From an uncultured archaeon (GTDB taxonomy: Archaea; Asgardarchaeota; Thorarchaeia; Thorarchaeales; Thorarchaeaceae): DNA of 32,680 nt. The position numbers and the translations under genes were made by a program. Where the stretch lies: positions 1-32,680 of the forward strand of contig CAYWJO010000039.1 of NCBI GenBank assembly GCA_964458565.1. Reading direction: 5' to 3'. The notes under the pieces are model-generated. The model was not told where the DNA came from and searched no databases. It saw nothing but the letters and a program-made list of their open reading frames with translations. Shown piece by piece: positions 1-20,180 of this stretch (position 1 is its first letter; each line of letters starts with the position of its first letter).

Positions 1-34
1 AATATTGTAATCTGGAGCGTGAGTGCGAGAACAT

Positions 35-228
35 GCCATCGTGGCTCAGTAGGTAGGGTCAGTTCCAAAAGGACTGACTGCCGAAAGCGACAGACAAGCG
101 TGAATCACGCCGAACCGCTAAAGCCTGTTATCTTTCAGCCAACAGGATGAGAGCCAGACAGTTGTTGGTCGGAGGTTCGAGCCTTGCACCGATTTCCGGT
201 GTGAGAGTTTACCCTCCCGATGGCGCCA
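35..228 (+). tRNA. tRNA-Asn(GTT) with four introns (57-85, 92-121, 131-159, 182-211) and encoded CCA
   Basis: Exons 35-56, 86-91, 122-130, 160-181 and 212-228 join to GCCATCG TG GCTC AGTAGGTA GAGC G ACAGC CTGTTAA GTTGT TGGTC GGAGG TTCGAGC CCTCC CGATGGC G CCA (76 nt). All four stems pair, anticodon is GTT, discriminator is G73. Each intron has BHB-like geometry. Confidence 0.9.
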
Positions 229-240
229 CTCTTCTTTTTA
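229..240 (+). terminator. pyrimidine/T-rich tract after tRNA (possible archaeal terminator)
   Basis: ctcttcttttta immediately after the CCA. Confidence 0.4.
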
Positions 241-11757: not shown

Positions 11758-12100
11758 TTTTTTACACTATATGGTGAGTGAACCATAGCTGTAAGAAACC
11801 TCTGTGTTCCGCCCCTCTCCTGCCGGTGTCACCACCCCTTGATATCAGATTGGTATCAAGATTAGCAAGAGTATTGTCTGTCTTCATCAAGATGGAATCC
11901 CTCCAACAGACCTGGTTTCTTTCTCCTGTCTTGTTGCTGCTTCATCACTTCCAGCGACAGAAAGAGTTCCCACAGTTTTTTCCACGGCAGGGTCCTCATC
12001 ACCCATCCTAACATCATCACTGAAGTCAAGAAGACTCGACTGAGCATGGTGAACGGCCGCGGACTCCCCAGGACCTGATGAGTGTCCCTCTTTGGAGAGT
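11758..12100 (-). ncRNA. candidate omegaRNA (reRNA) and right end of IS200/IS605-type element. The scaffold probably ends at GTTCAC (TCAC 11781-11778), followed by the guide.
   Basis: GC-rich, structured region overlapping and following the tnpB 3' end, with a hairpin at 11838-11860 and a GGTTCAC end motif. The 5' boundary is a guess. Confidence 0.5.
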
Positions 12101-13065
12101 AAGGACTTCCCTCTTGAAGAAGGCTTCTTCTCATGGGCTTTCAGTCGTGCACGTCGGATAGTTGTTCCTTGAACAACTGCTCTAGTCCACAAACCTAGTC
12201 CTCTCACAGAGTACAGTGACTTTGTGAGCTTAAGCATGCGTGCTGCGATATTGATACTACCATTCTTGTCAGCATTGGTCTTGTGTCCACAAGATGGACA
12301 GTGGAATAAGTTCTGTTTGGGTCTTCTTCCTCTACTTCCACACTTCCAACACATGATGGAGGTCCATGCCTCTGGAACAGCTCGGAATCGAGCATTCTTT
12401 CCATCGACCTTCCATCCGAGCTGTGCAAGACCATGCTTTAGACTATTAGTTACTCTAGCGAAGGCCCAAGAGTGTATCATACCTCTGAACCTTCGTCCCT
12501 TGTAGTTTCCTTTCTTCGCACGCAATCGTATATTCTTCAGGCGACCAATGGCAACATAGAGTGTGTATTTGATGGATAATTCAGAAATGTAGTCAAGAAG
12601 ATTATGGACAAGTACCCGGTCATATTCTCGCGAAACATTCTCTCTCTTGGAACGTGTCTTTCGGAGACTCTCTGCAACCTTATCAGATGATTCCCCATTG
12701 TTATTCCGGATATGCATCTCTCTCTGAAGATTTGCTACAAGATTATCATATTTCTTAATGAGTTCGACCTTCTCTCTCTGAACAAAGTAGCGAGTTTCTC
12801 TTGTCTTTTCAGGAGTGACAAGAGTAGAACAGGCTGCTTTCTTAATACCGAGGTCAATGCCCAGGATGGCAACAGGTAGGTTGTTTTCTGAAATCATATC
12901 AGGAATTATCTTTACTGCTAGAGTCACCCACCACTTACGTTTCCTATCTGTAAAAATCTGGAGAGCTTTTACATCACCTCGTTCAATCTGATTAAGATGG
13001 AAGGGTGACATCTTAAGAGGAATTCTCAAGCGATCATGGATTCTTCTACCATCCTGTGCAGAGTC
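11887..13065 (-). pseudogene. tnpB: 5'-truncated TnpB RNA-guided endonuclease with rearranged RuvC-II
   Basis: RuvC-I GIDLG, YVAIGRL (G at canonical E), VPEAWTS, Zn finger CWKC...CPSC, RuvC-III NADKNGSINI. Only about 60-70 aa precede RuvC-I, so most of REC/WED is missing. Confidence 0.85.
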
Positions 13066-15702: not shown

Positions 15703-17187
15703 CTAATACGATCTAGCAATGTAGACGATTTCTTCTGCCATTTTTCCGCAGACGGGACATACTCCGCTAGTAACTTCTTCTTTATCAATTCGTGTGCCTC
15801 GAATCTCTCCACCGGTCCGGTCTTTAATTTCTTCAGCACAGGCTAAACCCTCCATCTCAATGGTACAGAATGGGCTTCGAGCAATTTTGGATTTGTTGAG
15901 AGCGTCGTCAATGAGACCGATTGTATCAGCATCTACGATAAGTCCATCAAAGTTGGATTCTGCTTGTGACCTCAGAGTCGTGTCGATTTCTTCACCTAAT
16001 GCTTTTACTCGTTTAGTAATCCCCTTGAGTTCTATAGTTTCTTTCTTCAGAAGGTCTCTACGGAATAGGACGACCTTATCTTCCTGGACCTCTTTTGGTC
16101 CGATATGGACTCGGATAGGTACACCTTTCATCTCCCACCAGTTGTATTTCCATCCCGGTGTGGCTTCACGATTATCCAGGTGTGTACGGAAACCAGCCTT
16201 CTGAAGCTTAGATTTCACTTTCTGGCAATACTTCAGCACTTCTTCTTCGGTCTTAGCCTTGAAGATTGGCACAATTACGACCTGATATGGTGCGATCTTA
16301 AAGGGAAGTCTGAGGCCTCTATCGTCACCATGTACAGCAATCATAGCCCCATATATTCGTGATATTGCAGGACCGTAGCATGTCTGAAATGCATACACAA
16401 ATTCATTATCATCATTAAGATACTTGATATCAAATGCTCTTGCGAAGTTGTCTCCAAGATCATGAGTCGATGGAAGTTGAATGACTTTTCCATCAGGCAT
16501 TAGGGTATCAGCAGCGTATGTGTTCAAACCTCCGGGAAACTTATCCCATTGTGTACGTCTGAATACCATTACAGGAATACCGTAGTCTCCTGTCACCACT
16601 TCCTTAGTAATCTCAAGATCTTCTAGAACTTGTGCCTTTCCCTCTTCATGAGTAGCATAGACATTGTGACTTTCGATCCAGAGAAACTCGCGCCCTCTTA
16701 GAAAGGGTCGCGTACTCTTTATCTCTGATCTGAAAATTGATGCGCGTTGGTATAACTTCATGGGAAGATCACGCCAGCTTCGTACCCAGAGTGAATACAT
16801 TGGATAGATAGCGGTCTCACTAGTGGGTCTGAGAGCTAATCTCTCTTCCAATTTGCCATCCTCACCATAGTCCTCAATCCAAAACACCTGAGGAGTGAAT
16901 CCTTCAACATGTTGTGCCTCTCTTGTAAGGTTACTCTCGGGGATTACGGTAGGGAAAATCATTGGCAAGTGATCTCTGCGTTGTAGAGAATCTTCGAGAT
17001 AATCGAACATAAGTTCCATTGACATTGTACTCCAGGGAGGAAAAGGAGTGAATCCCTTTACTCCATATCGAACGTCAGCCAACTCAGCAAGTTTGCAAAT
17101 TTCTGTATACCAGTCTGGAAAATTGCCAGTCTTACTGATATTGAAAATAGCCTGTTTATTCTGTTTCGTTTCTTCACTACCGCTCAT
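15703..17187 (-). CDS. proS: proline--tRNA ligase (archaeal/eukaryal type)
   Basis: RPTSET, SWRDLP, TRPFLRGREFLW.E.H, HGDDRGL, PGWKYNWWEMKGVP, C-terminal ARSY. Confidence 0.97.
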   Translation of the reverse strand: MSGSEETKQNKQAIFNISKTGNFPDWYTEICKLAELADVRYGVKGFTPFPPWSTMSMELMFDYLEDSLQRRDHLPMIFPTVIPESNLTREAQHVEGFTPQVFWIEDYGEDGKLEERLALRPTSETAIYPMYSLWVRSWRDLPMKLYQRASIFRSEIKSTRPFLRGREFLWIESHNVYATHEEGKAQVLEDLEITKEVVTGDYGIPVMVFRRTQWDKFPGGLNTYAADTLMPDGKVIQLPSTHDLGDNFARAFDIKYLNDDNEFVYAFQTCYGPAISRIYGAMIAVHGDDRGLRLPFKIAPYQVVIVPIFKAKTEEEVLKYCQKVKSKLQKAGFRTHLDNREATPGWKYNWWEMKGVPIRVHIGPKEVQEDKVVLFRRDLLKKETIELKGITKRVKALGEEIDTTLRSQAESNFDGLIVDADTIGLIDDALNKSKIARSPFCTIEMEGLACAEEIKDRTGGEIRGTRIDKEEVTSGVCPVCGKMAEEIVYIARSY

Positions 17188-17866: not shown

Positions 17867-17962
17867 TGCTCATCAACACCACGAAAATGAAAACAATGAC
17901 GTAAAAACAGTTTGGAAGGACCGCGAAAGGCCTTATTTGTGAATTTGAAACTAATCCATTCA

Positions 17963-19033
17963 ATGTCTGTCATTAGTATTGACGGCGCCTACGGTGAAGG
18001 CGGCGGTCAAATCATTCGTTCAACTATTGCATTATCGGCTCTCACAATGAAACCAGTGATAATCAAAAATATCAGAGCTGGAAGACCACAACCAGGTCTT
18101 AAGAGACAACATATTGCGGGGGTAGAACTTACAGGAACTTTGGTGAATGCAGAGATATCCGGACTAGAGATAGGGAGTACTGATCTCAAGTTTGTTCCCA
18201 CGGAGAGGAGAGGGGGTCACTTCAAATATGATGTGGGGACAGCAGGTGCAATCTCATTAGTCCTTCAAGCGATACTTCCAGCAGCAGTTCTCTCCCCAGA
18301 AAAAGTCCATTTCAAGATAACAGGAGGTACAGATGTATCTTGGAGTCCTCCTATTGATTATATGAAGAATATTCTATCGCCGATGCTGAAGCAAGTTGGT
18401 TTGTCTGTTCACATCGATCAAGAGAAACGAGGCCATTATCCAAGAGGCGGCGGATTAGTAAACTGCTCAGTTGAAAGTACCACCGAAGTCACTCCTTTAT
18501 ATGCTGTTAAATTCGGGGAACTTGAAGAGATTAATGGGATATCTCACTGTGTTAGACTTCCAGCACATGTCGCATCAAGGCAAGCATCTGCAGCTAAAAC
18601 CGAGTTATCCGGAATTTCACCGATTGTTAAAATATATGAGGAAACATATCCAAAAGAGAGAGATACCCATTTAGGACCAGGTAGTGGGATTGTCTTGTGG
18701 GGAAAATCAGATAGTGGATTCCGAATTGGGGCGGACGCTCTTGGTGACAGAGGAAAACGGGCAGAGATTGTAGGAGAGGAGGCTGCACGGCAACTGAAGG
18801 ATGAGATTGGAGTGGGATATGCAATTGGATCTCATCTGAGCGATATGCTTGTCCCATTTTTAGCAATTGCTACGGGGATTAGCACCATTGGAATAACTAA
18901 GGTTACATCTCATCTTACTACTAACTTGTGGGTGAATGAGAGAATTTTAGGCGTTAAGACGCACCTCTCTGGGAAGATGGGCGAACCCGGAGTATTAGAA
19001 ATCGAGGGAGTCGGACTCACCTCTACTCAATGA
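17963..19033 (+). CDS. rtcA: RNA 3'-terminal phosphate cyclase
   Basis: IDGAYGEGGGQIIR, NIRAGR..PGLKRQH, TAGAISLVLQ, GGTDV.WSP, RGHYPRGGG, H..D, HL.TN. Confidence 0.95.
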   Translation: MSVISIDGAYGEGGGQIIRSTIALSALTMKPVIIKNIRAGRPQPGLKRQHIAGVELTGTLVNAEISGLEIGSTDLKFVPTERRGGHFKYDVGTAGAISLVLQAILPAAVLSPEKVHFKITGGTDVSWSPPIDYMKNILSPMLKQVGLSVHIDQEKRGHYPRGGGLVNCSVESTTEVTPLYAVKFGELEEINGISHCVRLPAHVASRQASAAKTELSGISPIVKIYEETYPKERDTHLGPGSGIVLWGKSDSGFRIGADALGDRGKRAEIVGEEAARQLKDEIGVGYAIGSHLSDMLVPFLAIATGISTIGITKVTSHLTTNLWVNERILGVKTHLSGKMGEPGVLEIEGVGLTSTQ

Positions 19034-20071
19034 AGAAAGATACTCATCTATTGCCTCTTTTGTTGGTGCAAGATCGACCTCATCAACGGCAGCAAGCATC
19101 AATTCGTCAACACCGATGCCCTCTACTGCGATGATTTCGAACGCATCTGGAATCCGTCTTCTAGCTTCTTCAAGCCTATCTGAAGGGGTGATATCTATTT
19201 TGTTGAACACTACCGGTGTAGGAACCAACGGAAACATTCGTCTAATCTCGTCATATAGTGCAATCTGTTCATTCAATGGCCAACCACATGCCTCTGATGG
19301 ATCTATCATAAAGATGATGACATGTGCGAGGTATTTGAGAGCTGCAATAGCCTCAAGCTCAATTTTATTCCTTTTCGACATTGGCCGATCAAGTAGTCCA
19401 GGAGTGTCTACAATCTGGACACTATGTTCCCGCACTTTCAGATGTCCTACAATGACCTTCCTTGTGGTGAAGGGATAATATGCAATCTCAGGTTCTGCAG
19501 TTGAAACTGCACGAACAAGAGTGGACTTTCCTACATTAGGAAATCCAGCACACACGACGGTTGGAGAGTTGGGAATAATTCCAGGAAGTTGGGACATCTT
19601 TATTTTTGCATCTATTATGAAGTCAATGTTCTTTGCGGTTGCTCTGAGAATTGAGGCGATTCTGCCTTTGGCCGCACTACGTGTACGTTTCATTTGTTTT
19701 GGATCAGTGCTCAGTTTAAGAGCTTGCAAGTGGTTATCTGTAATTTCGTCAATAGGAGGAATACTGTTGTATACTGCTCCTAAAGATTGTTTCAAACGAT
19801 CAAGACCAACTAGGACCTCGGTGAGTTCTAGATAGAATGGATGAAGCCGGTCAAGTGATGGAAAATCTTCTACTATAGATTTGAGTTTTAGTTTGACTTG
19901 CTTTACGAATTCTTGGAGACGCGTTATTTCACGGATTCGAGTTCGCTCATTCCTACTCAAACGCAAAGAGCTCTTCATGCTGATTGTTGTTGATTTATTA
20001 TGCGCAAACTCAATGATCTCCTCTGCAGTGAGAAGAGTTGGAATATTTACAAATGGATTGAGATTACGCAT
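18995..20071 (-). CDS. Nog1-family GTP-binding protein
   Basis: LHPFY, GFPNVGKS, YPFTT, DTPGLLDR, DPSEACG, NKID. Confidence 0.93.
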   Translation of the reverse strand: MRNLNPFVNIPTLLTAEEIIEFAHNKSTTISMKSSLRLSRNERTRIREITRLQEFVKQVKLKLKSIVEDFPSLDRLHPFYLELTEVLVGLDRLKQSLGAVYNSIPPIDEITDNHLQALKLSTDPKQMKRTRSAAKGRIASILRATAKNIDFIIDAKIKMSQLPGIIPNSPTVVCAGFPNVGKSTLVRAVSTAEPEIAYYPFTTRKVIVGHLKVREHSVQIVDTPGLLDRPMSKRNKIELEAIAALKYLAHVIIFMIDPSEACGWPLNEQIALYDEIRRMFPLVPTPVVFNKIDITPSDRLEEARRRIPDAFEIIAVEGIGVDELMLAAVDEVDLAPTKEAIDEYLSSLSRGESDSLDF

Positions 20072-20180
20072 GGATGGCCACATCTGTTGATTGAGTTATA
20101 TATGAACACTTCAAAATGCTAATAAACGAGTGGAATAGACCATATTTGTCGTTTAATAGCCAACGGAGATTTTAGATAAC

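Follow-up and report, generated by a model that had tools for sequence, protein, structure and literature searches.

Can a stretch of 194 nucleotides, 118 of which would have to be removed as introns, be a working tRNA gene, and how would its transcript be turned into a tRNA? The question is raised by positions 35–228, on the forward strand, of a 32,680-nt contig of archaeal DNA, which we analyzed over its full length and refer to as the window. The window is contig C39 of an assembly (genome G000) of 3.73 Mb in 93 contigs, with 41% G+C and an estimated completeness of 93%. An earlier note, made from the letters of the sequence, had described the locus as a tRNA-Asn gene split by four introns. 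Our analysis indicates that it is very probably a functional Thorarchaeota tRNA-Asn(GTT) gene, the only copy that we found, and that its four introns are of the bulge-helix-bulge (BHB) type and spliced by proteins.

Gene architecture and the spliced product

The gene consists of five exons of 22, 6, 9, 22 and 17 nt, separated by four introns of 29, 30, 29 and 30 nt. The intron coordinates proposed in the earlier note (57–85, 92–121, 131–159 and 182–211) proved to be exact throughout, and joining the exons yields a 76-mer, which ARAGORN identifies as tRNA-Asn(gtt) over [1,76]. The product has a 7-bp acceptor stem, a discriminator G and an encoded CCA. All four intron hairpins named in that note are present as well, with 8, 5, 6 and 9 bp in introns 1, 2, 3 and 4, respectively. 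The features of the locus are as follows, where A1 denotes an alignment of the orthologues from 11 genomes, each with four introns:

1–34 (+): 5′ flank with the 3′ part of the promoter and a short leader; the contig starts inside TTAATATT
35–56 (+): exon 1, tRNA positions 1–22, with the 5′ strand of the acceptor stem, the 5′ strand of the D stem, the D loop and G22; invariant or nearly so in A1
57–85 (+): intron 1, site 22/23, 29 nt, with an 8-bp hairpin of 58–65 with 71–78; missing in G020, G058, G009, G011 and others
86–91 (+): exon 2, positions 23–28, AGCGAC, a 6-nt micro-exon; invariant in A1
92–121 (+): intron 2, site 28/29, 30 nt, with the hairpin GCGTG/CACGC; missing in G023, G007, G083, G009 and others
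122–130 (+): exon 3, positions 29–37, with the anticodon GTT at 127–129; assigned from ARAGORN and relatives
131–159 (+): intron 3, canonical site 37/38, 29 nt, with the hairpin CTTTCA/TGAGAG; present in 30 of 30 orthologues
160–181 (+): exon 4, positions 38–59, with the 3′ strand of the anticodon stem, the variable loop, the 5′ strand of the T stem and TTCGAG; assigned from ARAGORN and relatives
182–211 (+): intron 4, site 59/60, 30 nt, with a 9-bp hairpin CTTGCACCG/CGGTGTGAG; missing in G023, G058, G064, G060, G024, G051 and others
212–228 (+): exon 5, positions 60–76, with the 3′ strand of the T stem, the 3′ strand of the acceptor stem, the discriminator G225 and CCA at 226–228; assigned from the sequence and ARAGORN
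229–240 (+): T-rich trailer CTCTTCTTTTTA, by its sequence a probable transcription stop

The remainder of the promoter motif, CAGCAATGTTAATATTG, is supplied by contig C11, and the same motif is found 5′ of tRNA-Asn in relatives. When we tried it for promoter-based gene discovery, it was not common to the other tRNA genes of the genome.

Two further ways of interrupting a tRNA gene are ruled out for this locus: the inserts are 29–30 nt long, compared to a ribozyme core of hundreds of nucleotides, and no Rfam intron family matches the window, which excludes group I and group II self-splicing introns, and the exons are collinear, on one strand and within 194 nt, which excludes a split or permuted gene.

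Further along, the window encodes the following proteins:

11887–13029 (−): TnpB-like protein (Cas12f1-like TNB domain)
15703–17187 (−): prolyl-tRNA synthetase (ProRS)
17912–19033 (+): RNA 3′-phosphate cyclase RtcA
18995–20083 (−): NOG1-type GTPase

The ProRS is 70–78% identical to the ProRS of about 69 Thorarchaeota/Promethearchaeota MAGs, in agreement with the Asgard-like genome that the note had assumed. A search for related loci with the FAD-oxidoreductase encoded next to the tRNA gene gave no matches.

The same note had expected default finders to overlook the gene, and they do: in the unspliced window, ARAGORN calls no tRNA and no Rfam family matches at its gathering threshold. Scores of the orthologues against RF00005 decrease from 54–58 bits in genes with one intron to 39.7 bits in a gene with two, and this model does not match the tRNA-Asn of L127 or that of L141, in which the canonical intron is accompanied by a T-loop intron. 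This decay of the score with added introns explains why the gene in the window is invisible to Rfam.

Orthologues and intron sites in the family

The locus was compared by BLAST with 86 genomes from its GTDB family, and the matches were processed with a spliced-alignment script. A tRNA-Asn(GTT) gene was recovered in 30 genomes from 12 genera, all Thorarchaeota MAGs, with 62–73 of 73 exon nucleotides identical, and the spliced products of all 30 orthologues were identified as tRNA-Asn(gtt) by ARAGORN. An exon chain shared by 30 genomes is far more than chance would produce. The 73 exon nucleotides up to the discriminator are identical between the window gene and those of G022, G049 and G068.

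Some relatives lack the insert at 22/23, some that at 28/29 and some that at 59/60, in each case precisely; the one at 37/38 is universal. G023, for example, has only the inserts at 22/23 and 37/38, G009 only those at 37/38 and 59/60, and G060, G024 and G051 only that at 37/38; G020 lacks the insert at 22/23. In relatives without the 59/60 intron, the sequence of the T loop is TTCGAGC or TTCAAGC. By alignment to these relatives, the predicted exon/intron junctions are confirmed without the use of any splicing motif. Across the 30 genomes, six sites are occupied:

Site 22/23: 18 of 30 genomes
Site 28/29: 19 of 30 genomes
Site 37/38: 30 of 30 genomes
Site 43/44: 4 of 30 genomes
Site 50/51: 2 of 30 genomes
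Site about 59/60: 22 of 30 genomes

The number of introns per tRNA-Asn gene ranges from one to five, in proportions that are biased towards genes similar to the query, since the latter had four introns:

1 intron: 3 genomes
2 introns: 5 genomes
3 introns: 8 genomes
4 introns: 12 genomes, the commonest number among the genes recovered
5 introns: 2 genomes (G079 and G063)

The view that a four-intron tRNA is exceptional, taken in the note, is not upheld by these counts, as 12 of the 30 family genomes carry the gene with four introns and another two with five, and multi-intron Asgard tRNAs have been published.

The five-intron gene of G079 (L126, 1411–1635, minus strand) has its introns at 22/23, 28/29, 37/38, 43/44 and 60/61, and that of G063 (L129, 1411–1634, minus strand) at 22/23, 28/29, 37/38, 43/44 and 50/51; the smallest exons of these two genes are 6–7 nt long. 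The encoding of CCA is polymorphic within the family: it is encoded in the genome of the window and in most relatives, and some family members have no genomic CCA (among the orthologous loci L125, L126, L129, L136, L143 and L042).

Splicing motifs and machinery

We placed the BHB motifs, which consist of a 4-bp helix with a 3-nt bulge on either strand, so that each bulge is cut behind its second nucleotide. The pairings are:

Intron 1: central helix AGGT/GCCG, 3 of 4 pairs; 8-bp hairpin offset by one nucleotide
Intron 2: central helix AGCG (86–89)/CGCT (116–119), 4 of 4 pairs; flanking helices weak
Intron 3: central helix CTGT/CCAG, 3 of 4 pairs; classic hBHBh′, with the anticodon stem outside (4 of 5 pairs) and 5 of 5 pairs inside
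Intron 4: central helix TTCG/AGTT, 1 of 4 pairs (U.U, U.U, C-G, G.A); T stem outside (5 of 5 pairs) and the 9-bp hairpin inside

Introns 1 to 3 are thus predicted to form bulge-helix-bulge motifs. For intron 4, the prediction is only a relaxed motif, composed of the 5-bp T stem, a 7×7 internal loop and the 9-bp hairpin.

Of 95 introns in the relatives, nearly all have a central helix with 3 or 4 of 4 pairs, and the intron strand of this helix varies along with the exon strand (AGGT/GCCT, CGGT/ATCG, TGGT/ACCA, TTCA/TGAA). RNAalifold, applied to the 11 orthologues of A1, yielded 56 pairs. Compensatory changes are seen in 23, a count that is inflated by kinship and is therefore supportive only. 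Among these pairs are those of the acceptor, anticodon and T stems, of the central helices of introns 1 and 3 (H1 and H3) and of the hairpins of introns 1, 3 and 4. Further, a solver that combines cloverleaf rules with the splicing motif and uses no homology recovered introns 1 to 3 de novo. For the T loop, its seed step gave a 30-nt gap, which is placed at 58/59 by the motif and at 59/60 by homology. The junction of intron 4 is in any case ambiguous due to flanking C residues, as cuts from 59/60 to 61/62 yield an identical product.

The two placements of the T-loop gap lead to an alternative in which intron 4 is really 181–210 (58/59). The central helix would then be GTTC/GAGT, with a perfect 4 of 4 pairs, and the T loop would be TTCGAAC, which is also valid; it is this register that the motif-guided solver picked. 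However, it departs from the TTCGAGC or TTCAAGC of intron-less relatives, and neither flanking helix would stay in register with the T stem or with the 9-bp hairpin, which is supported by covariation. We consider it unlikely that intron 4 lies at 58/59.

The poor central helix of intron 4 could also be a sign that the locus is a decaying or non-functional copy, in which at least one insert, most plausibly intron 4, cannot be spliced, and that a working tRNA-Asn gene lies in the 7% of the genome missing from the 93%-complete assembly. Of the 21 other genomes with a 59/60 intron, 18 form 3 or all 4 of the pairs of this helix, in contrast to the 1 of 4 seen here; the closest carriers, G022 and G049 (TTCG/CGAA), are among them. 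Against this, all 76 exon nucleotides are intact, 73 of them identical to G022, G049 and G068, the promoter and the trailer are intact too, and the T stem and the hairpin of intron 4 are perfect. Broad-specificity EndA enzymes are known to cleave relaxed motifs (PMC5829648). Moreover, no second tRNA-Asn was detected in the assembly by blastn-short with the spliced sequence, by RF00005 hits, by ARAGORN or by the solver census described below. Taken together, we give decay only a slim chance.

An assembly artefact, such as a chimera at the end of the contig or the collapse of strain variants, might be suspected from the start of the contig 34 nt 5′ of the gene and from a 55-nt overlap with C11 that ends at the border of exon 1 and intron 1, but its probability is negligible given that independent MAGs (G022, G049, G008, G017 and others) have the same layout of five exons and four introns inside contigs, with G022 and G049 being 80–82% identical to the window over the whole 194 nt. 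The overlap itself, in which window positions 1–55 are the exact reverse complement of C11 1–55, is a k-mer-sized graph overlap that puts C11 directly upstream, and the graph break at the exon 1/intron 1 border may reflect strain polymorphism. Judging from these comparisons, misassembly of the locus is very unlikely.

For a functional gene with four protein-spliced introns, we infer the following course. Transcription from the TATA-type promoter just upstream would give a precursor of approximately 194 nt. EndA, probably a two-subunit, crenarchaeal-like enzyme of broad specificity, would cleave the precursor at its eight exon-intron borders, within the bulges, after which the five exons would be ligated by RtcB into the 76-nt tRNA, with the CCA already encoded. 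Introns 1 and 2 would probably be excised one after another. In the motif of intron 1, A86 is a bulge nucleotide and G87/C88 are part of the outer helix, and the motif of intron 2 pairs 86–89. Since the two motifs share nucleotides 86–88 and both borrow residues of the D arm, they cannot form together, which makes sequential removal probable. Such stepwise excision would keep the 6-nt exon attached.

Candidates for the enzymes of this route are encoded in the genome. One RtcB (589 bits) is accompanied by a pair of paralogous EndA proteins, located at C1:27246–27500 and C5:17476–17736; these are 187 and 212 aa long, and both contain an N-terminal domain (PF02778) and a catalytic one (PF01974). 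RtcA is encoded within the window itself. The first EndA matches the PDB splicing-endonuclease chains 3p1z_B, 3ajv_B, 2cv8_A and 2zyz_B with E-values from 1e-45 to 1e-33, whereas the second paralogue is divergent. We take these four chains to be crenarchaeal catalytic subunits. Asgard EndA has been described as an (αβ)2 enzyme with a broad-specificity L1 loop (Kaneta 2018, PMC5829648). The presence of two EndA and one RtcB would fit a broad-specificity (αβ)2 EndA in this organism, for which the heterotetramer and the substrate range are carried over from that study.

Other tRNA genes, intron turnover and known systems

In a census of the genome with the solver, 36 tRNA genes were resolved, all of them confirmed by ARAGORN after splicing; as Trp and some Val, Leu and Arg isoacceptors fall outside the census, this number and the following counts are lower bounds:

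0 introns: 8 of 36 resolved genes
1 intron: 19 of 36 resolved genes
2 introns: 8 of 36 resolved genes
4 introns: 1 of 36 resolved genes (Asn, the most split)

At least one intron is present in 28 of the 36 genes and at least two in nine, corresponding to about 1.1 introns per gene. The sites include 10, 14, 15, 20, 25, 46 and 59/60. Nine solver solutions with scores ≤20 ('Asn(att)', 'Cys(aca)' etc., with 4–7 long introns) were dropped as false positives. A 'tRNA-Asn' reported by ARAGORN at C5:23467–23606 was found, by eye and with the solver, to be a tRNA-Thr(TGT) with two introns.

The suspicion in the note that the genome hides more fragmented tRNAs proved justified, as 15 of the 36 resolved genes are missed or only partly matched by Rfam, that is, they are not full-length matches above the cut-off. 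Examples are genes for Tyr, Met, Asp, Gly(GCC), Pro(GGG) and Pro(TGG), with up to four introns of ∼30 nt in the D arm, the variable region and the T loop; loci of this kind include C82:1–107, C77:6319–6461, C45:956–1092, C32:24312–24449, C5:88771–88909 and C7:51432–51570. Since non-canonical introns are about 30 nt long throughout the genome, the near-identical length of the four introns is a property of the introns of this lineage and not of the tRNA-Asn gene. In the whole genome, searches for other copies of the four Asn introns found none, with matches limited to chance 12–15-mers, so these introns are not a recently spread repeat.

In relatives, the introns at 43/44 and 50/51 (L126, L129, L136, L139, L143) belong to one sequence family (AGTGCATCAC...GTGGTGTGCGGCTAA), with a mean cross-site identity of 76%, compared to 48–58% in other cross-site comparisons. 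By means of G-U wobble, the 3′ end of this family (GGCTAA) is able to pair at either site, where the exon context is AGTT or GGTC. At the level of sequence, the pattern looks like transposition. One possible reading, to which we give somewhat less than even credence, is that tRNA-Asn in Thorarchaeaceae is an arena of live intron turnover, with six sites, one to five introns in any combination and a single 30-nt family at 43/44 and 50/51, and that the gene in the window is a snapshot of it, with introns 1 and 2 having to leave in sequence owing to their overlapping motifs around the 6-nt exon. If this is true, comparison of the relatives would directly document that BHB introns move by copy-and-paste from site to site in an Asgard tRNA gene.

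A separate observation concerns the 3′ end of the gene (214–228), of which CTCCCGATGGCGCCA at 1560–1574 is an exact 15-nt direct repeat. The two copies bracket 229–1559, a region with one FAD-binding, geranylgeranyl-reductase-like ORF (325–1527). Similar repeats of the 3′ end occur downstream of tRNA-Asn in G061 (+1448) and G059 (+397) and, inverted, in G100. In sequence and position, the 15-nt repeats resemble att-type scars left by elements that integrate into tRNA-Asn. An integrase was not seen, and tblastx comparisons of the flanks with relatives gave only weak hints of an insertion downstream of the gene.

To our knowledge, tRNA genes of Thermoproteales and other Crenarchaeota have been reported with at most three introns. 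The figure of 'up to three introns' in the note goes back to this older literature on Thermoproteales; for a single Asgard gene, up to five are reported (bioRxiv 10.64898/2026.10.13.758758). The system described here resembles that of Thermoproteales/Crenarchaeota (Marck & Grosjean 2003; Sugahara 2007, 2008; Fujishima 2010; reviewed in PMC4090602) in its two-subunit-type EndA, relaxed hBH/HBh′ motifs and RtcB, in having sites in the D arm, the anticodon loop and the T loop, and in the occurrence of related introns at different positions, here at 43/44 and 50/51 of the relatives. It differs in belonging to another phylum and in its very uniform introns, which are 26–34 nt long with a mode of 30.

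Closer parallels exist within the Asgard archaea. In Atabeyarchaeia and Freyarchaeia, 92–95% of tRNA genes contain introns and over half contain several (Valentin-Alvarado et al. 2024, PMC11291895); Supplementary Data 4 of that study provides columns for four introns and contains a single tRNAscan call with that number. A recent preprint (Goswami et al. 2026, bioRxiv 10.64898/2026.10.13.758758) reports 2.2 intervening sequences per gene in its focal families, with up to five, and finds that 30%, most of them in the D arm, escape tRNAscan-SE; copying between tRNA genes was tested there and no general route was found. As in the tRNAs of these papers, for which up to five introns per gene are given and repeated gains inferred, the introns studied here are several and short, many of them at non-canonical sites in the D and T arms, BHB-associated and missed by standard annotators. 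The layout is therefore already described for Asgard archaea in the literature of 2024–2026, and the picture drawn by the two papers is unchanged. In contrast to their focal groups, the host is a Thorarchaeote, a lineage named as intron-rich in the main text of neither paper, and its load is about 1.1 introns per resolved gene, as opposed to 2.2 in the focal families of the preprint. This lower genome-wide load makes the four-intron Asn gene an outlier within its own genome.

Annotation by covariance models and ARAGORN drops such genes, and the tRNA sets of Asgard MAGs consequently look falsely incomplete. The locus provides a clean case, backed by homology, of an essential gene that is kept though it is cut into five exons, some as small as 6 and 9 nt. 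With six sites, one to five introns and 30 genomes, the orthologues form a compact set of data from which the gain and loss of BHB introns could be dated, and the same matrix, derived from a single gene, could be used for testing the substrate rules of Asgard EndA.
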